Position numbers and translations under genes: made by a program
DNA from: a virus
Taxonomy: Duplodnaviria; Caudoviricetes
Virus record (IMG/VR): IMGVR_UViG_3300036719_001675
Coordinates: 1-53,703 of that record
Length of the DNA: 53,703 bases
Reading direction: 5' to 3' (one strand)
The notes under the pieces: generated by a model
Database searches by the model: none
Seen by the model: the letters and a program-made list of their open reading frames with translations, nothing else
Told to the model about the DNA's origin: nothing
In this document: positions 21,593 to 53,703 of the stretch, piece by piece
Layout: each line of letters begins with the position of its first letter
Numbering within the stretch: position 1 is the stretch's first letter

Positions 21593-21866
21593 CTTAGCGT
21601 CATGCAAAGGTCAGACAGTTAAGTTTTTTAGGCATACTTGTTCACTCAGATGCAACACACACCCACAAGGTTGTGATAGAGTCGCTACAGTTAGACACTG
21701 TAGAAATACCTGTCTGACTTGCCCCGTTCTAGAACATTGCAGAATATGGGCGATCAGCACAAATTTAATTTATGGGTTCGCAGGCGGTATGTCTGAGAGC
21801 GAAAGAGAAACATTCAAGACTATGTTGGAGGAAGAAAATGGAAGAATTCCTGTTCAGTCAGACTGA
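21558..21866 (+). CDS. whiB: Second, atypical WhiB-family protein
   Basis: WFNLASCKG...CLTCPVLEHC...YGFAGGMSESER; extra Cys/His insert. Confidence 0.8.
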   Translation: MDNSLSVGEWFNLASCKGQTVKFFRHTCSLRCNTHPQGCDRVATVRHCRNTCLTCPVLEHCRIWAISTNLIYGFAGGMSESERETFKTMLEEENGRIPVQSD

Positions 21867-23187
21867 GTTTGTGCCAGTTAAGAAATTGAAGGCATACGGT
21901 AAGAACCCACGAAAGGGTAATGTTCGTGCTATTGCAGAGTCACTTGCTACGAACAAGCAATACCGACCTATTGTCGTTCAAAAAAGCACTAATCAAATTC
22001 TTGCTGGAAACCATACATGGCAAGCGGCTAAGTCTCTTGGTTGGGATAAGATCGCTGTCGTTTATGTTGATGTAGATGATGAACACGCAAAGAAAATCGT
22101 TCTCGCAGACAACCGAACCAACGACTTAGCAGAATATGATGATCGTATTCTTTCAGAATTGCTAACAAGCCTTGAGACAATCAGTGGCACTGGCTATACC
22201 GAATCTGACATGGATTCAATCATGCAATCAATCAGCACAAGCATGATGGACATTGAAGACGCTGGAGCACAACTAGACGAACGGGCAAGATTAGCGGCAG
22301 ACCCATTTGCTGGCGGTATTCCTCTTGACGATGATGATGAAGATGATGACTTAGAAGCAGTATCTACTGAAGAAGTAGAAGACACGCTTGAAAACAAAAC
22401 CAGCGAACTTGCTGGAGTTGTTGAACTGGCAGAAGCAAAAACTTTTCCAGGTTGTGGCGCATGGGATTTTCCTCCAATGATTCCTGAAATGATGATTGAT
22501 GAATTGCCGTATAATCTGCGTACATGGGCAGGAAGCGCCACTAGAGATATTGACCATGATGGGCATTGGCTGTACAACTGGGGAGTAGATAGCACTTCAG
22601 GTATGCAAGACCTAAGTAAAGTAATGCTTTCGTTTTACACTCACGATGAATACTTTGACCGATGGTGGGAAAACACTTCTACTTATACTGCAAAACTTTT
22701 GAACTCTAGGGTCAAGTACGCAATCATGCCTAACTACACTTCTGGCGGTATGCCCAAAGCAATCTCTATTCTTCAAAACTACAAATCATGGTATGTTGCT
22801 AGGTATTTGCAAGAGGCTGGTATCAAAGTAATGCCAGATATGGAATGTCGCCCTGAACCAGAGTTTGTTCAAGCGTGGAAGAAATGTATGCCTAAGTCAA
22901 TCCCGTTTATGGCAGTTCAATTACAAAACCTTTTCACAAGTTCACGAACTGGCACTAGAGCAACAGAAGAAGATTGGCGAAATGCAGTTACTGAGACTTG
23001 TGATGGGCAAATTAAAGGAATGGATATTGGCAATATCCTTGTTTATGCACCAACCACTAAGTGGGATATGATTCAAGACTCATGGTCTAGAAAAGACATT
23101 AAATTGCACTTCTTCCCAACACGAATTGAACTCTTAGCAGCACGATCAAAAGTTCGGGGTGCAGAAAAAGAAGCGAGAGGCTTTTGA
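21838..23187 (+). CDS. ParB/Srx N-terminal domain + acidic linker + DUF4417-like domain
   Basis: NPRKGNV..IAESL...PIVV..ILAGNHTWQAA..LADNR; C-terminal FYTHDEYFDRWW...PNY...YLQEAGIKVMP. Confidence 0.75.
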   Translation: MEEFLFSQTEFVPVKKLKAYGKNPRKGNVRAIAESLATNKQYRPIVVQKSTNQILAGNHTWQAAKSLGWDKIAVVYVDVDDEHAKKIVLADNRTNDLAEYDDRILSELLTSLETISGTGYTESDMDSIMQSISTSMMDIEDAGAQLDERARLAADPFAGGIPLDDDDEDDDLEAVSTEEVEDTLENKTSELAGVVELAEAKTFPGCGAWDFPPMIPEMMIDELPYNLRTWAGSATRDIDHDGHWLYNWGVDSTSGMQDLSKVMLSFYTHDEYFDRWWENTSTYTAKLLNSRVKYAIMPNYTSGGMPKAISILQNYKSWYVARYLQEAGIKVMPDMECRPEPEFVQAWKKCMPKSIPFMAVQLQNLFTSSRTGTRATEEDWRNAVTETCDGQIKGMDIGNILVYAPTTKWDMIQDSWSRKDIKLHFFPTRIELLAARSKVRGAEKEARGF

Positions 23188-23882
23188 GTACAATATTTCT
23201 AGCACCTTATGGCGATCATGGGTCAGGCGTAAAATCAGCACCACATTCACTTTTGGGGTATCGCAATTCAATCGGCAAGACTCACTTACAATCGGCAGAA
23301 ATACCGTGCGCTACTACTGAAGAAATGTTAAACAACATTCCTCTTATTCTTTCTAACTATAAAGAATATGTAGTTATTGGTGGAAATCATGCGATTACTC
23401 TTGCAATTCTTCAATCACTTCAGGGTAAAAAAAATAGACCTTTTTTAGTGATGTATGACGCACACACTGACACTTATCAGCACAAGAGTGAACTTGATTG
23501 TGGCAACTGGTTACGGTTTGCAGAAGATGAAACTCTTATTTCAGGTGTTCACTGGAAGGGTATTCGTGATAAGTCTGCATACAACCTAAGTAATACTATG
23601 GACATTCCAAAGAGTGGTCATGTTCATGTAACTGTTGATCTAGATGTGCTTGAACCAAAAGAATACGGTTGGGCTTCAAATTTTAATGAGCCAGATGGAA
23701 TGTCATTAGACAAACTAATAAGCAGTATCTATTCAATACGAAAAAAAACCAAAGCAACTATCACAGCAGATATTGTTGAGTATGACGCTTTCAAAGATTC
23801 ATCAGGTGCAGGTCGCTATGCCTGTTCGCAAATTCTTGATGCTCTATTAGATATCATTAATCCATTAAAGAGTATTGAATAA
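23184..23882 (+). CDS. Arginase/agmatinase-family ureohydrolase
   Basis: GGNH, YDAHTD and VDLDV Mn-ligand motifs; DIVEY. Confidence 0.85.
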   Translation: MSTIFLAPYGDHGSGVKSAPHSLLGYRNSIGKTHLQSAEIPCATTEEMLNNIPLILSNYKEYVVIGGNHAITLAILQSLQGKKNRPFLVMYDAHTDTYQHKSELDCGNWLRFAEDETLISGVHWKGIRDKSAYNLSNTMDIPKSGHVHVTVDLDVLEPKEYGWASNFNEPDGMSLDKLISSIYSIRKKTKATITADIVEYDAFKDSSGAGRYACSQILDALLDIINPLKSIE

Positions 23883-24359: not shown

Positions 24360-25790
24360 GTGGCAAGCGATGACAAGGGCAAAGCAAAAGGCGTATTCAC
24401 AGAGGCTGGTGTAACTGGTCTTAGGCGTAGTGGTGGATATGTTCACGAAGAATTCTTGCCTCAACTGGCAGGGTATCGTGCAATTCAGGTGTACCGTGAA
24501 ATGCAGGATAATGACCCTGTAATTGGTGCAATTTTATACGCAATTGACAAACTCGTTCGTCAAGTGGCATGGCGTGTTCAGCCAGCCTCAACAAAACTTG
24601 AAGATCAAAAAGACGCTAAGTTTCTTGAATCGTGTCTAGGTGACTTGAATGTTGCTTGGGAAGACACAATCAGTGAGATCATGTCCATGCTTGCCTATGG
24701 TTGGTCGTTTCACGAAATTGTCTATAAGAAGCGCAATGGTTATACGAGTGACACAACGAAGACTTCTAAGTACAACGATGGAATGATCGGTTGGCAGAAG
24801 TTCCCAATTCGCTCACAAGAAACCCGTGACCGCTGGGTGTTCGCAGACAATGGCGACATTCTTGGTATGTGGCAGTCAGCCTCTCCAACATACTTCCCAA
24901 CATATATTCCAATTGAAAAGGCTTTACTGTTCCGAACGACAGTTTCAAAGAATAACCCAGAGGGTCGTTCAGTATTGCGTAACGCCTATCGCCCTTGGTA
25001 TTTCAAGCGCCGAATTGAAGAAATTGAAGCAATCGGTGTAGAGCGTGACCTTGCTGGATTCCCGATTATGTATGTTGACCCAGACATCATGCGTGAAGAT
25101 GCCTCTGGTATGAAAAGCACTGTATTTCAGGACTATAAAGATGTAATCATTAACATTCGTCGGGATCAGCAAGAGGGAATGATTCTTCCTGCTATGTACG
25201 ACGAAAATAACAACCTCATGTACAGACTTGAATTGCTATCTGCTGGCGGTGGTCGTCAATTTGATACAGACCGAATCATTACTCGCTATGACCAACGAAT
25301 TGCTACGACAGTGTTGGCAGACTTCATTCTGTTAGGTCAAGACATTGGCGGTTCATATGCACTGTCATCAGATAAGACGAGCCTGTTCGCTTTGTCTATC
25401 CGAACTTGGCTTGAAACGATTAAGACCGTTATGAATCAGCAGGCTATCCCACGCTTGTTTAGAGTCAATGGTATTGATACAGAAAAGTTGCCTGAACTTG
25501 TATATGGCGACATTGAAACGCCACCTCTTACCGAAATTGGCACATTCATTCAACAATTGGCAGGTGCTGGCGCACCATTGTTCCCTGATGACGCTCTTGA
25601 AAACCACCTTCGCAAAATGGCACACTTGCCCGAACGCCGTGAAGAATCAGCAGGCGTTGTTCAAGACGCTCAAGAAAAACTTTCTGGTCAAGATCAAGTT
25701 GACGCTTCCAAAGAAGCCAAGAATAATAAGAACGCAAAGAAACAAGAGACAGATCAAGAAGTCGCCCAAAGCATGACCACTAAGGAATAG
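24360..25790 (+). CDS. Portal protein (DUF935/Mu gp29-like)
   Basis: YREMQDNDPVIGA, NPEGRSVLR..YRPWYFK, IGVERDLAGFP, GSYALS; first gene of the head module. Confidence 0.9.
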   Translation: MASDDKGKAKGVFTEAGVTGLRRSGGYVHEEFLPQLAGYRAIQVYREMQDNDPVIGAILYAIDKLVRQVAWRVQPASTKLEDQKDAKFLESCLGDLNVAWEDTISEIMSMLAYGWSFHEIVYKKRNGYTSDTTKTSKYNDGMIGWQKFPIRSQETRDRWVFADNGDILGMWQSASPTYFPTYIPIEKALLFRTTVSKNNPEGRSVLRNAYRPWYFKRRIEEIEAIGVERDLAGFPIMYVDPDIMREDASGMKSTVFQDYKDVIINIRRDQQEGMILPAMYDENNNLMYRLELLSAGGGRQFDTDRIITRYDQRIATTVLADFILLGQDIGGSYALSSDKTSLFALSIRTWLETIKTVMNQQAIPRLFRVNGIDTEKLPELVYGDIETPPLTEIGTFIQQLAGAGAPLFPDDALENHLRKMAHLPERREESAGVVQDAQEKLSGQDQVDASKEAKNNKNAKKQETDQEVAQSMTTKE

Positions 25791-25792
25791 TC

Positions 25793-27244
25793 ATGCCTGC
25801 TACCTCAAACTTTCGTGGCAAGAAACTTCTTCAAGCCATTACTAATCTGATGGATAGCCTTGAAAGCAGATACCGTTCTGTTTTCTTGGAGACTATTGAG
25901 AACATTACAAATAGCCCTGATATAGCCGAAATTATTAGGGATATTCGCTTAGGAAATATCACCACAATTGACAACGCTACCCTCGCAAGAATTCAGGGCG
26001 TTCAACTGAACACATATGACCTAACGGTTGCCTCAAGGCAGGCTATGGCTTCAGGTGGCAAGATAACGGCTAAGACGGTAGGGCTTGAAGGTAAGTTCAA
26101 CCTACAGAACCCAAGAGCAATTGCTGCAGCCAGAACTCTTAGTGATGAACTCGTTGCCAATTTAAGTAAAACTGTTACAAAGAATCTGACCGACATTATT
26201 ACTGACGGTGTGTCAGGAACTGATTCTCTTTCGGAAACTATTCGCCGTATTAAAGATGAAATTGGATTAACGACACAACATTCAGCGGCAGTAAAAAATT
26301 ATCGCAAGAACCTCATTCAAACTGGAATGGATAAGGCGAAAGCATTAGCCCAATCAGAAAAATATGCGAAGAGATTGCTTAAATATCGTGCCGAAACAAT
26401 TGCACGAAGTGAAATAGCAATGGCGGTTAATAAAGGTCAGGCAGAGTTCTGGAAACAGATGAAAGATGACGGTTCTATCCCACCTACTGCAATGAGAATT
26501 TGGATTGCAGAAATGGATAGTAAAACTTGCGACATATGTGCGCCTTTGAATGGAGAACTAGCACCAATTGATGGTGCTTGGTCTACTGGTCTAGGGTTCT
26601 TTGACATACCGTATGCTCACCCTCGCTGTCGTTGTACTTCAGGGCTTGTATTCCCCAACAAAATCACCAAAAACGACCCAATTGGTTATGAGCAATGGGT
26701 TATTTCAAAAGGCGATTATGTAGGTCACCCATTCAGAGGTAATCAATGGACTAAAGTTGGTGGTGCAGGTGCTGGCGCTAAGAATGAAGCAAATGCCTCT
26801 CAAATTGATTGGAATGTTCTTTACGACAACGATGTTCCTGGGGAATTAGAGTCATATCTCGGAGATAATGCCGTAAAGTCCCTTGAAAATTGGATATTTA
26901 ACGCTAAATACCCAACTCAATGGCTTAAAGAAGTAGCAGGAAAAGACTATGAATATGAAGAGCATTATCAGACTCTTCAAGGTTGGTTAAAAGAAGCCAA
27001 TTTCCCCGATACGGTAACTGTTATTAGGCAGGGTACGCCAGACCCTAGGGGAGACATACGAAGTGGTTCTGCTATGGAAGGCTGGACAGGTGGCGCTATT
27101 GACGCTCAACATCATTATGGTTCTGACCGAAAAGTTTATGTAAGCAAAGTGCCAAGAAAAAATATCATTGGTATTGGTCAGATAGAAGAAGGAGAACTCT
27201 TCTATAAAACCGAAGGCGTAACAGTGACGGAACTGAAAAGGTAG
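25793..27244 (+). CDS. MuF/SPP1 gp7-like minor head protein with GHPFRGNQW tag and C-terminal ART-like domain
   Basis: RAETIARSE, TCDICAPLNG, HPRCRC; then ISK-GDYVGHPFRGNQW; then VIRQG..SGS..EEGE. Confidence 0.88.
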   Translation: MPATSNFRGKKLLQAITNLMDSLESRYRSVFLETIENITNSPDIAEIIRDIRLGNITTIDNATLARIQGVQLNTYDLTVASRQAMASGGKITAKTVGLEGKFNLQNPRAIAAARTLSDELVANLSKTVTKNLTDIITDGVSGTDSLSETIRRIKDEIGLTTQHSAAVKNYRKNLIQTGMDKAKALAQSEKYAKRLLKYRAETIARSEIAMAVNKGQAEFWKQMKDDGSIPPTAMRIWIAEMDSKTCDICAPLNGELAPIDGAWSTGLGFFDIPYAHPRCRCTSGLVFPNKITKNDPIGYEQWVISKGDYVGHPFRGNQWTKVGGAGAGAKNEANASQIDWNVLYDNDVPGELESYLGDNAVKSLENWIFNAKYPTQWLKEVAGKDYEYEEHYQTLQGWLKEANFPDTVTVIRQGTPDPRGDIRSGSAMEGWTGGAIDAQHHYGSDRKVYVSKVPRKNIIGIGQIEEGELFYKTEGVTVTELKR

Positions 27245-27846: not shown

Positions 27847-28371
27847 ATGGAAGCACAGATTACAAAAATAGATGATGATAAGCGCCTCGTATTTGGTTGG
27901 GCTTCAATTATCAAAGATGTAGAAGGAAAAGTCCTACTTGATCGCCAAAACGACTACATTGACTCTGAAGAAGAATTAGAAAAAGCCGCCTATTCGTATG
28001 TTCTAAATTCCCGTGATGGTGGAGAAATGCACATTCGTAAGGGTGTTTCAACAATGGTTGAATCGGTTGTTTTCAGCAAAGAAAAGCAAGAGGCAATGGG
28101 TATCCCTTCTGGCTCAATGCCCGTTGGTTGGTGGATTGGTTTCCGAGTCAATGATGAACGGGTATGGGAAGAAGTCAAAAAGGGTCAGTATTCAGGATTC
28201 TCTGTACACGGGACTGGTCAACGAAACCAAAACATTCTAAAAGACGGTGAATATACCGAAATTGAAAAGAATGATGAAGTGCAGGAAGAGAAATTTGACG
28301 GTGTTCGTGTTTCTAAAAAACTTTTGATGACATTGACCAAGGCACAAAAGAACAAGAGCAAAGACAAGTGA
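27847..28371 (+). CDS. XkdF-like prohead serine protease
   Basis: KIDDDKRLVFGWAS, DRQND, GEMH, VES, GWWIG, GFSVHG. Confidence 0.88.
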   Translation: MEAQITKIDDDKRLVFGWASIIKDVEGKVLLDRQNDYIDSEEELEKAAYSYVLNSRDGGEMHIRKGVSTMVESVVFSKEKQEAMGIPSGSMPVGWWIGFRVNDERVWEEVKKGQYSGFSVHGTGQRNQNILKDGEYTEIEKNDEVQEEKFDGVRVSKKLLMTLTKAQKNKSKDK

Positions 28372-28376
28372 TCTAA

Positions 28377-31091
28377 GTGGGAATTTCAAAAGACAACCCG
28401 ACTTCTTCTGATGTTCATGTAGACGCAATTATGGGAGCAGTTAAGAATTCTGCCATGACAAGTAAAAAGCGACGCTTGAAGAAAAAGCGTATGGCTATGG
28501 ATATGTCTCTTAAGAAGGGTGACTTTGTAGGACACCCATTCCGAGGTAACCAGTGGACTAGGGGAATGGGCGTAAGTCGTATGGCAGGGCGATCAGCACC
28601 AAAAGACCCAACCGCAGGTGCTCAAGGTGGTGGAAGTGGCGTAGTTAACCCAACAGTTAAAATTACCAATGATAGACCTCTTGGTTTTCGTGAAGCAGGA
28701 TTGCCAGCACACGGAAGAAAAACAGGAACGGCTGTTGACGATCTCTTAACTATGGGCGCTAAAGATAGTACACAAGCGTCAGAAGGTCGTTCTTTATACA
28801 GAGACACTCAAAGTATGCTTGACACTGTTCACCGAAATTTAACGCAAGTACAAAGTAATGTTCTTTCTCTTAAGCGTAGACCAGACCAACCAGATAGCGA
28901 ACTCTTAGGAATTCGTAACAGAAGTCTATTGGCTGAAGTAAATTCAATTCAGGCTAAGTTACGGGCGCAAGAAGCAGAGTCTTTGGCTACAGCAGCGCGT
29001 GGTTCAAGAAAAATTCAAGCACAAGACTATGGCGCAAGTTCAGAACTTCAAGCACAACAAGCAGGAGCAGTTAATAGTGCTGCAAAAAAGGCACTATATC
29101 TTGGCGATGTAAACAAGCGGTTAGACTCATTCTTAAAAGAATTTAAAGGTAGCCCTGACGCTTTATTTTCTAAAGAATCAGCAGAAGTAACTACTAAGAG
29201 AACAAAAGGGGCTTCCCCCACTAATGAAGTAACACGCAAGTTACCTTCTGCTACTGTTACTCACCCAGACCTTGAAAATCCTTCTTCGCCAATGTGGAAG
29301 CAAAAAGTTCTAGGAGAAATGAAGTCTGTTTCTGCTACTGTTCAATCAGGTGGCGAAACTTATAGGGTTGACGGTATTCACCCAATCATTGCAGGAGTAT
29401 CACCAAAAGTTAAGTTTACCCCTGCGCTTATTAAAGAATTACAAGGTTTGTCTTTTGCTCAACAATCAATGATTACATCTGGTCATACAAGCACTGCCTC
29501 AATGATGGCAGAAATTAAAGCAATTAAAGCGAAAAAAGTTAAAGCAGGTTCTAATGCAGACAATGGAGAAGGTTTCAGCCTGACTACTGACCTTATGCTT
29601 AAACATAAAACAAAAGCACGAAAAGACGAAGAGTGGGATTCTTTAACTGAACCAGAAAAAAGAAGGTATGTAGACGCACCTGAGCATATGTCTCACGATG
29701 TTGCTATGCAATTAGCAATAGGTGTAAGGGGCGCTTTTGACCAACATTGGACACCGTTATCTGCTGGAGAAGTTGTCGTTAGTAGAACTGTTAGTAAGCC
29801 ATATGAAGCAAGTGCTCAAGAACTGCTTGGTAAGGGCGACTTCATTGGTCACCCATTTCGTGGTAACCAATGGGTTAGAGGTCGTGGTGGAATGGGTATT
29901 GGGGGAATGGTTGGTCGTGCCGCACCTAAAGACCCAACGAGTGGTTTTCAAGGTGGTGGCAGTGGAAAAGTAGCAAAGCCAAAGAAAACAAAAGAGGAAA
30001 AAGATGCGGAATGGGAATCACTAAACAATAAAGGTAAGATCATATATAGCGAGGCTCCTCAAGATTACAGCCACGATCAAGCGATGATGTTGGCTCGTAT
30101 GCCTCGCCGTGTTGTTAATAGGGGTCTTAGTGAAGCACAAACAAGGGAATACTGTAGCCTTTCACCAAGAGAAGGTGCTCACTATGAATACGCCAGTGCA
30201 AGCCGTTCTCATGCCAGCATTATGGCGGATATTAAAGCAGGGAAACCAGTTCGTGAACCTGCCGCTGGAATGAAGAGAGCAACCCCAGCAGACATTGCCC
30301 GTATCAGAAAAGAAGGTGTAGTTGTTGCTCCTGCATGGTCTGAAGTTCATGTGGCTAAGTCAAAATCTAGCAGGCTACAAGTGACAGGAATTGATGAGAA
30401 GGGGCGTGTTCAATCTGGCTATTCCAAAGCACACAAAGAACAGACTTCTAAAGCAAAGTTTGCTCAAGTAGCAGATGTTGAAAAAACACTGACTAAGTTA
30501 GATTCAGCACTAAAGCGTGATGTAGCGGCTGGAAAAGACGAGGCAGTTGCTTGTTTATTGATTCGCAAGATGGGCTTGAGACCAGGAGGTACTGGCGATA
30601 CTGGTGGTGCAGAAACAGCGTTTGGTGCTACTACTCTTCAACGCCGTCATGTTACCGTTCGTGGCAATACGACTACATTTGAATTCACAGGTAAAAAAGG
30701 CGTGAAGATTAAACTCGTTTCTAGAGACCCTGAAATTGCTAAGGCAATGACTGCACAGTTGGCAAAAGGTAAGCGTGGCGGTGACTCCCCACTATTTGAA
30801 TCTTCGGCAACTAAAGTGAATCAGTATTTGAAGCAGAACACTAGCCAAGACTTTAGCCTCAAAGACTTACGAACTGCATTGGCAACACGACAGGCTTTTG
30901 CATTGCTAAGATCAGCACCAGCACCGACTACGATGAAAGAAGCAAGAGCATTGCGTATGTCTATCGGTAAAGAAGTGGCACAGTTACTAGGAAATACGCC
31001 GAACATGGCACTTACCTCTTACATCAACCCCACGATCTTTGCTGGATTAGTCAAGCAATTCGGACCGCTTACAGGAAAGGCTAAATCGTGA
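28377..31091 (+). CDS. Putative internal virion polyprotein: capsid-like N-peptide, two GHPFRGNQW units, C-terminal type IB DNA topoisomerase
   Basis: TopIB motifs PAWSEV, LQVTGIDEKGRVQ, GLRPG, GATTL, FTGKKG, KDLRT, LGNTP..SYINP (about 30270-31091). Confidence 0.88.
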   Translation: MGISKDNPTSSDVHVDAIMGAVKNSAMTSKKRRLKKKRMAMDMSLKKGDFVGHPFRGNQWTRGMGVSRMAGRSAPKDPTAGAQGGGSGVVNPTVKITNDRPLGFREAGLPAHGRKTGTAVDDLLTMGAKDSTQASEGRSLYRDTQSMLDTVHRNLTQVQSNVLSLKRRPDQPDSELLGIRNRSLLAEVNSIQAKLRAQEAESLATAARGSRKIQAQDYGASSELQAQQAGAVNSAAKKALYLGDVNKRLDSFLKEFKGSPDALFSKESAEVTTKRTKGASPTNEVTRKLPSATVTHPDLENPSSPMWKQKVLGEMKSVSATVQSGGETYRVDGIHPIIAGVSPKVKFTPALIKELQGLSFAQQSMITSGHTSTASMMAEIKAIKAKKVKAGSNADNGEGFSLTTDLMLKHKTKARKDEEWDSLTEPEKRRYVDAPEHMSHDVAMQLAIGVRGAFDQHWTPLSAGEVVVSRTVSKPYEASAQELLGKGDFIGHPFRGNQWVRGRGGMGIGGMVGRAAPKDPTSGFQGGGSGKVAKPKKTKEEKDAEWESLNNKGKIIYSEAPQDYSHDQAMMLARMPRRVVNRGLSEAQTREYCSLSPREGAHYEYASASRSHASIMADIKAGKPVREPAAGMKRATPADIARIRKEGVVVAPAWSEVHVAKSKSSRLQVTGIDEKGRVQSGYSKAHKEQTSKAKFAQVADVEKTLTKLDSALKRDVAAGKDEAVACLLIRKMGLRPGGTGDTGGAETAFGATTLQRRHVTVRGNTTTFEFTGKKGVKIKLVSRDPEIAKAMTAQLAKGKRGGDSPLFESSATKVNQYLKQNTSQDFSLKDLRTALATRQAFALLRSAPAPTTMKEARALRMSIGKEVAQLLGNTPNMALTSYINPTIFAGLVKQFGPLTGKAKS

Positions 31092-32332
31092 TTGAATTTA
31101 CTCCACGCACAGAAGAAGAAGAAGCACAACTTACCGCAGACATGAAGGCTTTCTTTGAGACTATTCAGGATAGTGACATTGAAGTTGATGAATGGTTAGG
31201 CGATGAATACAGTGAAGAAGACGATGGAGAGAATGGCGAAGAACTAGGCGACATTGGCGAAATGGTTGGTATCACCAAAGCCCAACCATTGAAAGACCCT
31301 AAAGGTGGTCTCACTGCCGCTGGTCGTGCTAAGTACAATCGTGAAACTGGTTCTAACTTGAAGCCTGGAGTTACTGGTGCGGCAGATACGCCTGAAAAAA
31401 TGCGCCGTAAAGGTTCTTTCCTTACTCGCTTCTTCACAAACCCAAGCGGTCCAATGGTTAATGATAAAGGCGAACCAACACGCCTAGCATTATCAGCAAA
31501 CGCATGGGGAGAACCAGTTCCGAAGAATCGTAGCGATGCCGCCAAACTTGCCGCAAAGGGAAGAAGCCTCTTGGCTAGATACGAAAATGTAAAAAAAGGC
31601 GATTATGTAGGACACCCTTTTAGGGGAAATCAGCACACTCGTGTTGCTATTGCCGCAAGAACAAAAGAAATAATGGGGCTTTTAACTAAAAAAGCAGGGG
31701 AGCAAGTTGCAAATGGTCTAAAGCCTTTAGTGGAAGCAGCAGTAGAAGAATTTCAGATAAATGGTGCTTCAAATGAACCTCTTCTAGTCAATGGCAAAAA
31801 AGTTTCTATGGGCGGTCAAGTAGTTACTACCGCTGGTTTTTTAGACCTGCTTGTTAATGAGGTAGGAATGAAAGCAGTGTTTGGTCGTGATTTTTCAGCA
31901 GGTGATTTCAAAGAAGGCGAGAAGTTCCTTAAAAAAGGTGGCGGTCTTACCCAATGGTTTGACGAGAAGTGGGTTGACATTTCACGACCAAAAGAAGGCG
32001 GTGGCTACGAACCTTGTGGTCGCCCTGATGCTCATAAAGGTCATTATCCTAAATGTGTACCTGCCGCCCGTGCAGAAAGAATGACTCCTGAACAAATTAA
32101 GTCTGCCATTAGTCGTAAGCGTCGTGCAGAATCAAAAACGGTACGCCAAGACAAAAAGCCAATTATGGTTGAGACCATTAAAAAGGAAAATATTCCTGTA
32201 AATACTGAACTTTACAACAAAGTAAAGGCAGAGGCTAAAGCAAAATTTGATGTTTACCCATCTGCTTACGCCAATGGTTGGTTGGTTCAAGAGTACAAGC
32301 GTCGTGGTGGCAAATATAAAACTTCCGAATAA
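31088..32332 (+). CDS. Putative internal virion polyprotein (DUF6321-like, GHPFRGNQH unit, DUF5872-like modules)
   Basis: KDPKGGLTAAGR..NLKPGV; GLTQWFDEKWVD..CGR..YPKCVP; LYNKVKAEAK..PSAYANGWLVQEYKRRGG. Confidence 0.8.
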   Translation: MIEFTPRTEEEEAQLTADMKAFFETIQDSDIEVDEWLGDEYSEEDDGENGEELGDIGEMVGITKAQPLKDPKGGLTAAGRAKYNRETGSNLKPGVTGAADTPEKMRRKGSFLTRFFTNPSGPMVNDKGEPTRLALSANAWGEPVPKNRSDAAKLAAKGRSLLARYENVKKGDYVGHPFRGNQHTRVAIAARTKEIMGLLTKKAGEQVANGLKPLVEAAVEEFQINGASNEPLLVNGKKVSMGGQVVTTAGFLDLLVNEVGMKAVFGRDFSAGDFKEGEKFLKKGGGLTQWFDEKWVDISRPKEGGGYEPCGRPDAHKGHYPKCVPAARAERMTPEQIKSAISRKRRAESKTVRQDKKPIMVETIKKENIPVNTELYNKVKAEAKAKFDVYPSAYANGWLVQEYKRRGGKYKTSE

Positions 32333-32405: not shown

Positions 32406-33293
32406 ATGAATCGGTTGACTGATATGGAATTTGACGAGATTAGTCTTGTTACTCGCCCTGCCAATCAATTGAGTAAAGTGGTACTTTTCAAAAGCGACGA
32501 ACAACAGGAGCAATCAGTGACTACTGAAGTTGACAAAGGTTACGGAAAAATGGGCATGAAGAAGAAAATGAAGCCCATGACCGACGAAGAAATTATGGCT
32601 ATGTCCGAAGAGGAAATTGCTGCTATGGAAGACGAAGAGCCTATGAAAAAGGGTTCGGGTATGAAGCGTCGTGGTCGCCCAGTTCGTAAAGACGACGACC
32701 TTGATGAAGAAACCTCAGAAGATGTTATTGATCTTCCGAACGAAGTTTTTGAATACATTTCAGCACTTGAATCTGCAAATGCAGAACTCCTTGACCAAGT
32801 TGAAAAACTGGCTAAAAGCGTTGAAGTTGTTGCCGAAGAAGAAGACATTATGAAGTCGGCAGACCCTCAGATCGTGGCACTCGTCAAGTCTTTTGAAGAA
32901 CGAGCAAAAGCCGCAGAAACCATTGCTAAGTCGGAACGAGATTTCCGTCTTGAGCGTGAATTTGTTAGCAAGGCTTCTACCCTTAACGCATTGCCAATTG
33001 AATCTGATTCATTCGGTAAGGTTCTCAAGGGTGTTGCCGAATCAGTTTCTAGTGAACAGTTCAAGGTGCTTTGGGAAGTTCTCAGTGCCGCTAACTCGGC
33101 GCTTGCCGAAAGCAACCTTTTCACTGAAGTGGGCAAGTCGGGTGACTTTGACAATGATGGAGCAACTAGCCCCATCAACAAAGCCGCAGAACGAATTCTT
33201 GCTACCACACCAAATCTGACTCGCGAGCAGGCAATTGCCAAGGCTTTAGAATCAGACCCCAACCTTTACACAGCCTACTTACGAGGTAACTAA
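32406..33293 (+). CDS. Capsid scaffold protein with N-terminal protease-like EISLV..PAN peptide; internal start at 32517
   Basis: Helical and acidic; many [ILVM]xK[SAGD] sites; AGGAG + GTG at 32517 in frame. Confidence 0.8.
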   Translation: MNRLTDMEFDEISLVTRPANQLSKVVLFKSDEQQEQSVTTEVDKGYGKMGMKKKMKPMTDEEIMAMSEEEIAAMEDEEPMKKGSGMKRRGRPVRKDDDLDEETSEDVIDLPNEVFEYISALESANAELLDQVEKLAKSVEVVAEEEDIMKSADPQIVALVKSFEERAKAAETIAKSERDFRLEREFVSKASTLNALPIESDSFGKVLKGVAESVSSEQFKVLWEVLSAANSALAESNLFTEVGKSGDFDNDGATSPINKAAERILATTPNLTREQAIAKALESDPNLYTAYLRGN

Positions 33294-33702: not shown

Positions 33703-34662
33703 ATGCCTCAGCCCACATCAACACAGGTTCATGTTGACGCAATCTTGACTAACATCTCGGTTGCTTTCATTCAAGACCAAGGCAATTTCATCGCTAACCA
33801 AGTTTTCCCGACTGTGCCAGTTGAGAAGCAGAGCGACAAGTATTTCAAGTATGCAAAGGGTGACTGGTTCCGTGATGAAGCAGCGCTTCGTGCTCCTGCA
33901 ACCGAATCAGCAGGTTCTGGCTATGGCTTGACCACTGACACCTATAGCACTCTCGTCTATGCTTTCCACAAGGACATTGACGATCAGGTTCGTGCTAACA
34001 GTGACTCGCCGTTGAACCCTGATCGTGACGCTACGCAATTCGTTACCCAGCGTATGCTTCTTCGTCAGGAAATTGACTGGAGTGCCAAGTATTTCACCAC
34101 TGGCATTTGGGCAACCGACAAGGTAGGTTCAACTGACTTCACGCAGTGGAGCAACTACACTTCGTCTGACCCGATTGAAGACATTGAAGCAGGTAAGAGT
34201 ACAATGTTGACAAGCACTGGCTTCATGCCGAACACTCTTGTTCTTGGCTACGATGTGTTCCGTCAATTGCGCCACCACCCTGATGTAGTTGACCGTATCA
34301 AGTACACCTCGTCTGAAGTGCCTGCCGAAGGTATCCTAAGCCGTTTGTTCGGTGTTGATCGTGTTCTCGTTACCCGTGCAATCAAGAACAGTGGCGCTGA
34401 AGGTGCTTCGGATTCGTTTGCTCAGGTTCATGGCAAGAACGCCGCCTTGTACTATGTTGCACCATCACCTGGCTTGCTTACTCCTTCGGCTGGTTACCAG
34501 TTCGCATGGCGTGGCGTAAGCGATGGAATGGGTCAGAACATCGGAATTACTCGCTTCCGTCGCCCAGAACTTCGTGCAGACCGCATTGAGGCTCAAATGG
34601 CTTGGGATTACAAGGTCGTTTCGTCTGATCTTGGGTACTTCTTCAGCAGTTGCGTAGCCTGA
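33703..34662 (+). CDS. Major capsid protein (HK97 fold)
   Basis: HVDAILTNISV, FPTVPV.KQSDKY, PNTLVLG; size and position. Confidence 0.9.
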   Translation: MPQPTSTQVHVDAILTNISVAFIQDQGNFIANQVFPTVPVEKQSDKYFKYAKGDWFRDEAALRAPATESAGSGYGLTTDTYSTLVYAFHKDIDDQVRANSDSPLNPDRDATQFVTQRMLLRQEIDWSAKYFTTGIWATDKVGSTDFTQWSNYTSSDPIEDIEAGKSTMLTSTGFMPNTLVLGYDVFRQLRHHPDVVDRIKYTSSEVPAEGILSRLFGVDRVLVTRAIKNSGAEGASDSFAQVHGKNAALYYVAPSPGLLTPSAGYQFAWRGVSDGMGQNIGITRFRRPELRADRIEAQMAWDYKVVSSDLGYFFSSCVA

Positions 34663-35102: not shown

Positions 35103-35996
35103 ATGAAAGACCTAGAAGGCTTACGCTTACAGGCGCTTTTATCAATTGCCAAAGGAGACTATGACGGTCACCCTTTTCGTGGCAATCAGTGGACTCGTAG
35201 GGCTAGTCGTGGTCGTGCTGCCCCCAAAGACCCTACTGCTGGCTCTCAAGGTGGCGGTTCTGGTAAAGCCAAACGGCAAGTAGATGAAATAAAAACCGAC
35301 ATTCAACGGTTTGGTGGTGGTGGAGGTATGGCTGCAACGATGTCTCGCCTTGATGCTCTTGATGCTCAGGCTAAAGCATTGTTATCAAAGCCTGCTGTCA
35401 AGATTGACAGTTCTCTTCCAAAAGAATCGCAAGAAGTATTAACAGCCCTAAATAATAGGTTTACTGAGAGAGTTAAGCGTTTTCACCCTAAAGATATACC
35501 TGATATTCAACAAAAAGTTCTTGAAGGTATAGAAGAGGGTAAAAAATGGGTTTCTACAGTTGGCGGTAACGAAGGTTATGTTAAAACTGGTAAAAAAAGA
35601 GCCGACACAGAAATGGATAGCGCTCTTAGCCATCAAGTTGATCGTTTTGCTAAATTCTTAGGAATTCGTGCTGGAATAGAAATTGCATCAGCAAAAAGTG
35701 GTAGCAAATCTTCAACTCGCAAACCTTCAACTCAAAACCCTACAACTCCTAAGCCTGGTTCAGCAGGGTCAACCAAAGAAATTCTAAGGCGAGAAGCCCG
35801 AAGAATATTAGCCGAAGCGCCAACTGCTCCTAAACCTGCTAAAGCGCCAACTGCACCTAAGCCAACTAAGAAGAAGACTAAAAAAGAAAAAGACGCTGAG
35901 TGGGAAGTTCTTACCGCTAAACAAAAGAAAATTTACGAAAAAGCGCCAGCAGATATGTCTCACGACGACGCTATGGCTCTTGCTTTGGGCTTGTAA
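35103..35996 (+). CDS. Putative internal virion protein with GHPFRGNQW tag
   Basis: IAK-GDYDGHPFRGNQW, APKDPTAGSQGGGSG and EW..SHDDAMALA shared with the 904-aa protein. Confidence 0.8.
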   Translation: MKDLEGLRLQALLSIAKGDYDGHPFRGNQWTRRASRGRAAPKDPTAGSQGGGSGKAKRQVDEIKTDIQRFGGGGGMAATMSRLDALDAQAKALLSKPAVKIDSSLPKESQEVLTALNNRFTERVKRFHPKDIPDIQQKVLEGIEEGKKWVSTVGGNEGYVKTGKKRADTEMDSALSHQVDRFAKFLGIRAGIEIASAKSGSKSSTRKPSTQNPTTPKPGSAGSTKEILRREARRILAEAPTAPKPAKAPTAPKPTKKKTKKEKDAEWEVLTAKQKKIYEKAPADMSHDDAMALALGL

Positions 35997-51919: not shown

Positions 51920-53002
51920 ATGAAGAAGCCTATTTCAAGAACGCCTGCACGGATACTGGTCGGGAATGTTCTAGACAGAATCAAAGAGATCAAAGATGAA
52001 TCGGTTCAGTGTGTCGTAACATCACCACCGTATTGGGGACTCAGGGACTACGGAACTGCCACATGGGAAGGTGGCGACGAAGCCTGCGAACACTCAATTT
52101 CAATGGACACTAAGTGGAATGACCCAAAGCGTGGCACGAAAGTGTTACGCCCAGAGACAGGTCATCGTGGCGGTAGTTCTAGCAATTGCCACAAGTGTGG
52201 CGCTATTCGCATTGATGACCAAATTGGATTAGAAGAAACTCCTGAAGAATACATTGAAAAAATGGTTCTTTTGTTTCGTGAAGTTCATCGGATTCTTGCC
52301 AAAGACGGTGTGCTCTGGTTGAACCTTGGTGATTCCTATGCAGGAAATAATAGTCGTGGCAGTAACGGACAACGGGCAGGCTTCTCTGGCAACAAGCGTG
52401 AACTGGTTGTTAACCGAACTGGCAATGGGCTAAAGCCTAAAGACCTCGTAGGTATCCCTTGGCGTGTTGCTTTGGCATTGCAGGCAGACGGTTGGTACTT
52501 GAGACAAGACATTATCTGGCACAAACCGAACCCTATGCCCGAATCAGTCAAAGATCGCTGTACGAAATCCCATGAGTATGTATTCATGCTTACCAAGAAT
52601 CAGCGGTATTACTTTGACTCTAAAGCAATTGAAGAACCTGCCAAGTGGGATAGGTGGGGAAAACAGACAGTTGTTAAAGAGCAACAAGGAACTGCTAAGT
52701 GGATTGGCGAAAAAACCAAAGAAGAACTGCAAGAGAAGACCACAAAGAACAGGCGTTCGGTTTGGACAATAGCCACGAAACCTTTCAAGGGTGCTCACTT
52801 CGCAGTTATGCCTGAAACGCTAGCAGAACCCTGTGTGCTCGCCTCTAGCCGTGAAAATGACATTGTGTACGACCCATTCACTGGTTCAGGTACAGTGGCA
52901 GTTGTAGCACTCAGGCACAAACGAAGGTTTATTGGCACTGAATTAAATCCAGACTATGCTCTCATTGCACAGAATAGAATTGGAAGGGTTAAATTGCTAT
53001 GA
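51920..53002 (+). CDS. DNA methyltransferase, N4-cytosine/N6-adenine, beta class
   Basis: VTSPPY before DPFTGSGT; WLNLGD, IIWHKPNPMP; Cys/His insert after SPPY. Confidence 0.93.
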   Translation: MKKPISRTPARILVGNVLDRIKEIKDESVQCVVTSPPYWGLRDYGTATWEGGDEACEHSISMDTKWNDPKRGTKVLRPETGHRGGSSSNCHKCGAIRIDDQIGLEETPEEYIEKMVLLFREVHRILAKDGVLWLNLGDSYAGNNSRGSNGQRAGFSGNKRELVVNRTGNGLKPKDLVGIPWRVALALQADGWYLRQDIIWHKPNPMPESVKDRCTKSHEYVFMLTKNQRYYFDSKAIEEPAKWDRWGKQTVVKEQQGTAKWIGEKTKEELQEKTTKNRRSVWTIATKPFKGAHFAVMPETLAEPCVLASSRENDIVYDPFTGSGTVAVVALRHKRRFIGTELNPDYALIAQNRIGRVKLL

Positions 53003-53703
53003 GCCTTGTTATGGGAAGATTACCTCAAGACGATGATGAACTTTGGTGGTACATCAAAACGGTCTGGGGTATTGATATCCCTAGAGTAAGGGTCTGTAAA
53101 AACCATGTAGCCCCATTTGAGGCACTAGCAGACGCTTACTTTGCTAGACACCCTGTCAGTATTTGGAAAGCCTCGCGTGGTTTCGGTGGTAAGTCAACAC
53201 TTACTGGCGTTCTATGTGCAATTGAAGCGGCAACTCTTGGCGCTCAAGTAACCGTTCTAGGTGGTTCTGCTGCTCAGTCTCAGCGTGTACACCAAGTAAC
53301 CCATGAACTTTGGTATAGCCCTCTTGCACCAAAAGGTCTACTTGCTGGCGACCCGACTAAATTCAGCACAACATTAACTAATGGTGCATGGATCGTTGCT
53401 CTTATGGCTTCGCAAAAATCTGTTCGTGGTCCTCACCCTCAACGATTAAGGCTTGATGAAGTTGACGAAATGGACTTGGAATTATTTGAAGCGGCACAAG
53501 GTCAACCAATGGACTCACGGGGACTCTTGGCACAGACAGTTGTTTCAAGTACGCACCAATACCCAGACGGAACTATGACCGAACTATTGCGTAGAGGCAA
53601 TGATAAAGGTTGGGGGCTTTTTGAATGGTGCTGGCGTGAGTCAGTAGGAACAGCAGAACACCCTGGCTGGCTCACAATGGAAAATGTTGAGCGTAAAAAA
53701 ATG
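52999..53703 (+). CDS. terL: Terminase large subunit, N-terminal ATPase part (missed by the ORF track; joins 267..944)
   Basis: MSLVMGRLPQ...KASRGFGGKST Walker A...VRGPHPQRLRLDEVD Walker B; open to the window end. Confidence 0.9.
   Translation, partial: MSLVMGRLPQDDDELWWYIKTVWGIDIPRVRVCKNHVAPFEALADAYFARHPVSIWKASRGFGGKSTLTGVLCAIEAATLGAQVTVLGGSAAQSQRVHQVTHELWYSPLAPKGLLAGDPTKFSTTLTNGAWIVALMASQKSVRGPHPQRLRLDEVDEMDLELFEAAQGQPMDSRGLLAQTVVSSTHQYPDGTMTELLRRGNDKGWGLFEWCWRESVGTAEHPGWLTMENVERKKM
53438..53703. repeat. Terminal direct repeat, copy 2
   Basis: Matches 1-266 with 4 substitutions. Confidence 0.95.

Follow-up and report, generated by a model that had tools for sequence, protein, structure and literature searches.

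Type IB topoisomerases (TopIBs) clamp duplex DNA, nick one strand through a 3'-phosphotyrosyl bond, allow the DNA to swivel and reseal the nick, all without ATP or Mg. These enzymes occur sporadically in bacteria, and poxviruses are the known case of a TopIB that is carried in the virion. Going by the titles of papers by Shaffer and Traktman from 1987 and by Da Fonseca and Moss from 2003, the poxvirus enzyme is reportedly encapsidated and is said to support early transcription. Here we analyzed a 53,703-nucleotide (nt) stretch of DNA from a tailed phage (Duplodnaviria; Caudoviricetes), called the window throughout, which is the whole of the IMG/VR record IMGVR_UViG_3300036719_001675 (CheckV completeness estimate, 100%). 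In its head module lies a single open reading frame (ORF) on the + strand, with a GTG start (28377-31091), that reads as a polyvalent precursor of 904 amino acids (aa) with a TopIB at its C-terminus. Fusions and gene neighborhoods in relatives suggest that this TopIB belongs to the phage head.

Two kinds of described phage proteins come close to this arrangement. Phage T4 is known to have a capsid-targeting sequence. Its Alt and other internal proteins, and the Dar proteins of phage P1, are loaded into the head, trimmed by a protease and injected (for Alt and Dar, as described in the main text of PMC5512222), akin to the fate proposed below; they have no sequence relation to the precursor, and unlike their single N-terminal leader, the putative addressing or processing element found here, a motif of 17 residues hereafter called the tag, is repeated at domain boundaries. 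The other kind is the polyvalent and MuF- or portal-linked effectors (Iyer et al. 2017, PMC5512222; Jamet et al. 2017, PMC5576092), for which the main texts describe, as in our case, domains strung on one polypeptide beside portal or MuF and fused to them in relatives. Partner domains named in these main texts, such as 2H phosphoesterase, InPase and ADP-ribosyltransferases (ARTs), likewise co-occur with the TopIB or with the tag at the loci described here. TopIB is not among the domains in the two main texts, supplements being outside the scope of this statement (the only "topoisomerase" of PMC5512222 stands in the title of a reference, and the word is absent from PMC5576092). Our literature searches, judged by titles and the openings of abstracts, returned no description of a head-associated phage TopIB, and an excerpt of one preprint lists PF01028 for a group of marine jumbo phages but gives no context for it. 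MuF- and portal-fused packaged effectors are already known, as is encapsidated TopIB in poxviruses; TopIB as the cargo of a phage head appears to be new.

The topoisomerase domain and its precursor

The original prediction described the end of the precursor (aa 632-904; nt 30270-31091) as an intact TopIB, and profile searches, alignments to PDB entries, motifs, the AlphaFold model and Foldseek all agree on this identity. The Pfam family Topoisom_I (PF01028) matched aa 685-877 (E = 3.2e-21) with 76.2 bits against a cut-off of 23.7, and a six-frame search of the whole record gave 79.6 bits; Top1B_N_bact matched aa 633-673 (E = 4.1e-05) with 23.6 bits, just below its cut-off of 27. When the protein was compared with PDB sequences by phmmer, the best match was the Deinococcus radiodurans TopIB (2f4q; E = 3.2e-18), followed by an archaeal TopIB (6z01; 7e-10) and the variola TopIB (2h7f; 1.2e-05). 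The enzyme consists of an N-terminal beta-sheet domain (aa 632-683; 30270-30425, +; strands at aa 632-634, 655-660, 667-672 and 678-682) and a catalytic domain defined by the Pfam match, the alignments and the fold (aa 684-897; 30426-31067, +). All the N-terminal and catalytic motifs named in advance were present between aa 651 and 885: APAW at aa 651, LQVTGID at 667, GLRPG at 733, TGKKG at 771, KDLRT at 829, LGNTP at 871 and TSYINP at 880.

These motifs supply a complete catalytic pentad, R735, K773, R832, N873 and Y882 (first codon bases at nt 30579, 30693, 30870, 30993 and 31020, +), which aligned with the catalytic residues of 2h7f, 6z01 and 2f4q. Among 54 homologues (described below; MAFFT alignment of the last 340 aa), the five residues were retained in 49, 52, 52, 50 and 49 sequences, respectively. 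An AlphaFold model of aa 560-904, built on an alignment of the 54 sequences, reached a mean predicted local distance difference test score (pLDDT) of 94.5 and a predicted template modeling score of 0.86, and all 22 PDB entries that Foldseek matched to it at E<=0.001 were TopIBs, of bacterial, poxviral, human, Leishmania and archaeal origin (best E = 8e-15). The alignment to full-length variola TopIB extended over 273-292 columns and covered both domains of the clamp fold. It is almost certain, in our judgment, that the precursor ends in an intact two-domain TopIB of the bacterial and poxvirus kind.

The closest enzyme in both sequence (E = 3.2e-18) and fold (E = 8e-15) is that of D. radiodurans (2f4q, 3m4a), likewise a small two-domain enzyme whose pentad has Asn where poxviruses have His. 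The poxvirus enzymes (vaccinia and variola; 2h7f, 3igc, 1a41) are also small TopIBs with the same fold (template modeling score about 0.6, E = 2.6e-12), but they come from eukaryotic viruses, are free proteins, carry His rather than Asn in the pentad and match in sequence at E = 1.2e-05 only; moreover, packaging of the phage enzyme is something that we infer.

Upstream of the enzyme, the precursor alternates between disordered and helical segments. In a model of the full-length protein (mean pLDDT 66), aa 1-137 are disordered, aa 132-274 form long helices, aa 270-351 are again disordered, aa 349-447 form short helices of low to middling confidence and aa 446-530 are disordered, leaving about aa 535-900 as the one confidently folded unit. 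Both tags of the precursor sit in these predicted disordered linkers, each followed by an APKDPT..QGGGSG extension. The first tag unit (28515-28640, +) consists of KGDFVGHPFRGNQW (aa 47-60) and its extension to aa 88, within the region of pLDDT below 50 that spans aa 1-137. The second (29832-29966, +), behind which the TopIB had been correctly placed, consists of KGDFIGHPFRGNQW (aa 486-499; nt 29832-29873), one of five copies in the window, and a Gly-rich extension to aa 530, with pLDDT below 50 for aa 446-518 and 521-530. A fragment beginning at GDFIGHPF, described earlier as about 420 aa long, would span aa 487-904 and thus 418 aa, a cut at this point being putative.

Between the two tag units, the long helices are coiled-coil-like (aa 132-274; 28770-29198, +; helices at aa 132-163, 173-215, 222-258 and 260-274, block pLDDT 60-81), and the middle of the precursor (aa 95-480) had no Pfam family at E<=1 and no usable match in the Atlas. 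The folded unit behind the second tag unit opens with a helical module of ~38 aa that directly precedes the TopIB and that we call module B (EKDAEWExL..Y..AP.D.SHD.AM.LA; aa 536-573; 29982-30095, +; helices with pLDDT above 90). Module B recurs at the C-terminus of a 297-aa tagged protein of the same head module (35871-35984; blastp within the head module, E = 5e-11), and a weaker copy occurs at aa 411-450 of the precursor itself (29607-29726).

The stop codon of the upstream protease gene ends 5 nt ahead of the GTG start of the precursor. A programmed frameshift joining the two was considered and rejected, as a stop codon occurs in the precursor frame immediately upstream of the GTG.

The N-terminus of the precursor, PTSSDVHVDAIM (28398-28433), equals that of the major capsid protein, PTSTQVHVDAIL (33712-33747), in 9 of 12 residues (blastp E = 0.23 in the small head-module set), and the same peptide was found just ahead of the last tag inside P0005, a relative described below. 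This shared peptide could be a scaffold- or protease-recognition peptide.

Topoisomerase fusions to head proteins in related phages

Using the TopIB part to search for long homologues, for which only proteins of 497-1582 aa were admitted, we found 54, and 31 of them also contain a portal or MuF domain according to Pfam. The carrier was PF06381 in 15 cases, PF06074 in 10, PF05136 in one, PF04860 plus MuF in one and MuF alone in four. Domain names and order, with the carrier first and the TopIB last, were confirmed on nine of the fusions, and in 48/54 long homologues the catalytic tyrosine lies within 60 aa of the C-terminus.

Over the TopIB part, aa 590-904, the precursor shows 99% identity to the full-length homologue P0002 (1021 aa) and 96% to another, P0003 (912 aa). 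The nearest non-identical relative, P0004 (63% identical), is composed of MuF, a tag, an unassigned domain, a second tag, a helical module and TopIB, and P0005 (50% identical) of DUF5872, tag, domain, tag, domain, a leader with a tag, and TopIB; in both of them module B precedes the enzyme. Judged by sequence, the tagged genes of the window look like the same string of domains split into separate ORFs.

An IMG/VR search that carries no length bias was made with one peptide pattern and gave 148 matches, of which 138 encode a TopIB relative; 80 loci with 74 distinct ORFs were kept. Detection of portal, MuF and XkdF genes at these loci relied on self-built, limited hidden Markov models (HMMs). 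TopIB and a portal or MuF domain shared one stop-free frame in 30 of the 74 ORFs; a portal, MuF or XkdF gene occurred on the same strand within 5 kb in 19 more, and at 5-10 kb in four. Fusions to portal, MuF or, in one case, head protease were found at 33/74 loci, and for at least 52 of the 74 TopIB loci a head gene is either part of a fusion or no more than 5 kb away. The proposal that the TopIB is the payload of a head protein therefore receives strong comparative support, from 31/54 long homologues with portal or MuF fusions and from 33/74 IMG/VR loci with head-protein fusions. The alignment of the TopIB was the query that succeeded in IMG/VR; the whole 904-aa protein, used in the same way, confirmed no related locus. 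A megablast of window positions 24-36 kb against the phage records described below found no match, and tblastn of the 297-aa tagged protein against them found none at E<=0.1.

The phage enzymes differ from the cellular TopIBs that we sampled, which are stand-alone proteins of ~330-370 aa with a GxGFxY-type start (one cellular-looking sequence comes from a 6-Mb Dyadobacter chromosome), whereas the enzyme of the window lacks that start and ends a 904-aa precursor. In short TopIB relatives (173-552 aa), too, an N-terminus of the GxGFxY type is mostly missing. The stretch right before the enzyme has instead other short conserved motifs followed by Gly-rich runs, of the HPRDxxGKF, FDPNQPRDxxGRW, GNWGHAGRPG and HLPGxHDQ types, and the same linker motifs separate portal from TopIB in the fusions. 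A further type, PRVPxGSxAGGEFG, was also seen among the linkers that precede TopIB (P0006-P0046, P0243-P0284; L008-L081). Together, these stretches give the impression of a broader class of linker signals in polyproteins.

A quick maximum-likelihood tree built from 119 sequences placed 11 of the 12 rows of cellular type together behind a 99% branch, the enzyme of the window lying on the other side, and the remainder comprised portal-fused, MuF-fused, tagged and short forms that were interleaved. In five rows the TopIB is not at the C-terminus, which accounts for their very long branches. Provisionally, this pattern suggests one phage-borne TopIB clade in which carriers are freely swapped.

Other enzymatic domains were observed on the same polypeptides as TopIB, including 2H phosphoesterase / 2'-5' RNA ligase, RtcB, InPase, NUDIX and histidine phosphatase (P0008, P0010, P0036, P0039, P0045, P0050; L005, L044, L063). 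The substrates of several of them are 3'-phosphate and 5'-OH ends or signaling nucleotides, which hints, speculatively, at a repair or counter-defense kit.

Probable packaging of the enzyme and the stage at which it may act

The fusions and the head-gene neighbors argue strongly for capsid packaging, and on this sequence evidence the TopIB is probably packed in the capsid along with the DNA. In the course of events that we propose, the precursor would be taken into the procapsid, where the head protease would probably free the TopIB unit at or near the disordered tag linkers. A folded unit of ~370 aa (about aa 535-904), in a few to about a dozen copies, would then stay inside close to the portal, exit together with the DNA, and work on DNA by ATP- and Mg-independent nicking and swiveling at the very start of infection. 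There it might relax the incoming genome, or relax the host chromosome, so that the removal of negative supercoils would work against gyrase, or it might act jointly with its frequent fusion partners. The presence of linker motifs even in the portal fusions favors release over docking, and the main text of PMC5512222 interprets MuF and portal fusions as packaged, injected effectors. We consider the reading as a whole, a packaged TopIB cargo that acts as infection starts, somewhat better than an even bet; for the part in which the enzyme is released, ejected and active early in the host, we would put the chances slightly below even.

Several points weigh against this reading. The TopIB of the window is fused to neither portal nor MuF, so that the case for its packaging rests on the tags, and a folded clamp enzyme of ~40 kDa must unfold or extend in order to pass the tail channel. 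At 21 of the 74 IMG/VR loci no head gene was detected with the limited HMMs, Pfam being applied to eight of the 21 only; on these eight, the longest, it found two lambda-family portal fusions, one fusion of 2H phosphoesterase, TopIB and a Mu-like protease, two NUDIX fusions and one kinase-like fusion. Among 50,697 phage records, tblastn with the 904-aa protein matched one record only, that of a 485-kb uncultured phage with a TopIB, and hence no cultured close relative, and a portal-TopIB query of the phage records returned only a stand-alone TopIB, in Bacteroides phage BS162P1, within a stretch without named head genes. The tree stems from a quick search, the careful search being unfinished, and its sample was picked by similarity to the query. 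Finally, CCCTT, the cleavage site of the poxvirus enzyme, occurs 79 times in the genome against 85.8 +/- 10.3 expected, and this lack of either depletion or enrichment gives no sign of self-avoidance or targeting.

Of the other roles that the data bring to mind, the one that survives best is a resident swivel at the portal vertex, in which a TopIB tethered in the capsid by fusion or tags relieves DNA twist during filling and release and is not injected. The C-terminal end of portals faces the capsid interior. TopIB occupies just this end in portals from four Pfam families, and would thereby set as many as twelve clamps next to the site where the DNA enters; as a family, TopIBs need neither ATP nor Mg and could work inside a capsid. 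MuF, moreover, binds the portal in the case of SPP1 gp7 (main text of PMC5576092). Against such a role, the covalent intermediate between TopIB and DNA cannot slide, which is hard to fit with fast translocation, and the conserved linkers and Gly-rich stretches between portal and TopIB suggest release. In the window, furthermore, the TopIB is on a separate tagged precursor, and the co-occurring NUDIX, 2H phosphoesterase, InPase, histidine phosphatase and RtcB domains have no obvious role within a capsid. We therefore regard a resident swivel as unlikely, and equally unlikely the general statement that a DNA swivel is part of the portal vertex in many uncultured tailed phages, brought there by portal or MuF fusion or by a tagged precursor, and relieves the twist of packaging and ejection. 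If it were true, the topology of encapsidated DNA would be an enzymatically managed variable.

Slightly less probable still is an enzyme of the assembly phase only, either scaffold-like or working on concatemers at the packaging site, that is degraded or expelled and hence absent from mature virions. The position of the gene between the protease and a scaffold-like gene would suit this role, as would the long helices in the middle of the precursor, which resemble those of many scaffolds. However, in 27/54 long homologues the fusion partner is the portal, a permanent virion component, so that the domain, if not cleaved away, would be in the particle as well, and a folded domain of ~40 kDa is, on general grounds, too large to exit through capsid pores, unlike scaffold peptides.

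We give a poorer chance again to a DNA-poisoning toxin of the MuF polymorphic-toxin kind, harming the recipient or competitors by, for example, trapped covalent complexes. Elsewhere, carriers with the same tag and MuF or portal do bear ARTs and a Zeta-toxin-family domain, and toxins fused to MuF have been reported (main text of PMC5576092). Yet the pentad that is conserved here is competent for religation, and no candidate immunity gene lies downstream, since the next gene encodes another tagged head-module protein. Nor was an integrase found in the window (PF00589 had no match at E<=0.01, with 14/14 control genomes matched), so that the temperate lifestyle to which the main text of PMC5576092 ties MuF toxins is not evident here. 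Last, a tyrosine recombinase or protelomerase, which the original prediction had named as the possible misidentification, is virtually excluded as the identity of the domain: such enzymes have the catalytic fold in common with TopIB and gave weak Foldseek matches (XerH, E = 2.7e-3; XerA; Tn1549 integrase; TelA, E = 6.5e-2; against 8e-15 for TopIB), but PF00589 is absent from the window, the Pfam TopIB score is far above its cut-off, the TopIB N-terminal domain is present, each of the 22 fold matches at E<=0.001 is a TopIB and the lysine is of the TopIB type, on a beta-hairpin with the motif TGKKG.

Should phage heads indeed contain TopIB, an entire clade, with about 100 of the 119 sampled sequences and 138 of the 148 IMG/VR stretches that match one peptide pattern, would be a virion component rather than a replication enzyme. 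Two questions would follow: whether DNA topology matters in the first seconds of infection, be it for relaxing the incoming genome or for undoing host supercoiling in the course of takeover, and whether an enzyme at the portal handles the torsional stress of packaging and ejection. The association of TopIB with the head is widespread in uncultured phages and directly testable.

The tag and the surrounding head module

In a six-frame translation of the window, the tag, KGDxxGHPFRGNQ[WH], occurs exactly five times, always on the + strand and within four head-module proteins: once behind the MuF domain (26708-26749), twice in the 904-aa precursor (28515-28556 and 29832-29873) and once each in the 414-aa and 297-aa proteins (31595-31636 and 35151-35192). 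The DNA of the five copies differs at most synonymous positions, implying selection on the peptide as opposed to a repeat that arose recently in the DNA. Among 1.84 billion proteins, a profile built from these copies matched 686 representative clusters at E<=0.001, of which 172 reached E<=1e-10, most of the 686 having several matched stretches each, with protein lengths of up to 3,461 aa. Of 188 proteins fetched, 186 had the strict motif, 569 times in total; neighboring copies were a median of 220 aa apart, and the part behind the last copy had a median length of 267 aa; long proteins elsewhere typically carry 2-9 copies at domain-sized spacing. The motif measures 14-17 residues, and its consensus reads [VIL]-x-K-G-D-x-x-G-H-P-F-[RH]-G-N-Q-[WY]-T, followed by a Gly-rich run. 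From its placement, the tag appears to be the domain-boundary punctuation of "beads on a string" proteins, marking boundaries in hundreds of head-associated polyproteins.

The company that the tag keeps also points to the head. A Pfam scan of 81 tag proteins, of 250-1000 aa and taken in id order, found MuF in seven, XkdF protease, DUF6321 and DUF5872 in five each, ADPrib_exo_Tox and DUF3626 in four each and Topoisom_I in two; singletons included Acb1, ART-PolyVal, ART, DRAT, ParB_N, Phage_portal and PI3_PI4_kinase, among others, and ART families totaled seven. In IMG/VR, one exact DNA pattern matched 92 stretches, and the following counts refer to the 80 of these that were listed, on 66 contigs. 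Individual contigs had as many as nine tagged ORFs. With the limited self-built HMMs, 34 of the 66 showed a gene for portal, MuF, XkdF or capsid, and in eight contigs the XkdF ORF was itself tagged. Variable positions of the tag agree within a protein well above shuffles (position 4 in 0.82 of pairs versus 0.48), which fits one recognition partner per phage, an explanation to which common ancestry of the copies could contribute.

These features suggest that the tag may be a capsid-addressing or a processing signal. An addressing signal would also fit its presence on the protease of relatives and its conservation over 17 residues, and we make no choice between this and a cleavage site. A predicted complex of the protease domain with the tag region scored 0.01 against a mark of 0.32, in a run without controls, and so speaks in neither direction on binding. 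The tag corresponds to no Pfam family, a profile search of PDB sequences gave only chance-level matches (E above 2), and no paper was found in a literature search for the tag strings; the words "linker", "glycine-rich" and "peptide motif" are absent from the main text of PMC5512222. A tag that turned out to direct proteins to the capsid or to mark a cleavage site could serve for loading chosen proteins into phage capsids.

The protease segment around its invariant Ser119 (28165-28212; VKKGxYxGFSVHG in 10 relatives) resembles the tag (VKKGDYVGHPFRG), three-glycine spacing included, a likeness that could be due to chance or to a real relation.

When a 33-aa piece with the tag was compared with the phage records by tblastn, one weak match was obtained (E = 1), which on reading proved genuine: the cultured Xanthomonas phage Rb1 (PQ569993.1) does contain the motif. 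There, a 1221-aa "internal head protein" (L176, 4817-8482) carries a single tag, DGDFSGHPFRGNQH, near aa 735, and its gene adjoins genes annotated as DarA-N-like, M12B metallopeptidase and chromatin-remodeling ATPase. Rb1 is a tractable system for studying the tag.

The gene map of the window agrees with the original description, in which the TopIB gene lies between protease and scaffold and apart from the replication genes. The latter, encoding a DnaG-like primase, DnaB helicase, Pol III alpha and RecA, occupy the left part (2-19 kb), and the right part is a siphovirus-type structural block that includes a major tail protein and a tape measure protein. All genes of the head module are on the + strand, in the order portal, MuF, two small ORFs, protease, 904-aa ORF, 414-aa ORF, scaffold-like ORF, a small ORF, capsid, another small ORF and the 297-aa ORF. 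The portal is of the Mu type (476 aa; 24360-25790; Pfam Portal_Mu, E = 5.5e-31; PHROG 113 portal, E = 5e-90), and the MuF-like head protein behind it (25793-27244; Pfam Phage_Mu_F, E = 3.6e-10) consists of MuF, the tag and a 149-aa C-terminal domain. The protease is an XkdF-type prohead serine protease (174 aa; 27847-28371; Pfam Peptidase_S78_2, E = 2.5e-22), in which S119 is invariant and H62 near-invariant among 10 relatives.

Downstream of the precursor gene, the 414-aa tagged protein (31088-32332) has DUF6321 and DUF5872 on either side of its tag (Pfam E = 1.5e-30 and 1.9e-17). It is followed by a 295-aa protein (32406-33293) matching PHROG 13547 (E = 5e-19; function unassigned), for which a scaffold role is inferred and which precedes the gene of the major capsid protein (319 aa; 33703-34662; PHROG 1005 major head protein, E = 4.6e-97). 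The 297-aa protein (35103-35996), without Pfam or PHROG family, has a tag unit near its N-terminus (the tag plus extension) and module B at its C-terminus.

No tRNA genes were found in the window, and the ORFs that run off the ends of the record (1-944 and 52999-53703) had no Pfam or PHROG family. The large terminase was not identified with Terminase_6N and TerL_ATPase, the only two families tried, neither of which matched in the record. A query of genome contigs with the capsid protein found no relative and hence no pointer to the host.

For the 149-aa C-terminal domain of the MuF protein, which follows its tag (26795-27241), Pfam gave no match at E<=1; by eye, it has an R / S / ExE pattern that resembles ARTs, a weak lead, and in the Atlas a DRAT cluster appeared at rank 28 only (score 0.91). 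Upstream of the head module, two genes make unusual neighbors for a portal gene, one encoding a 471-aa protein with ParB_N and DUF4417 (21772-23187) and the other a 232-aa ORF with an Arginase-family match (E = 3.7e-19; 23184-23882).

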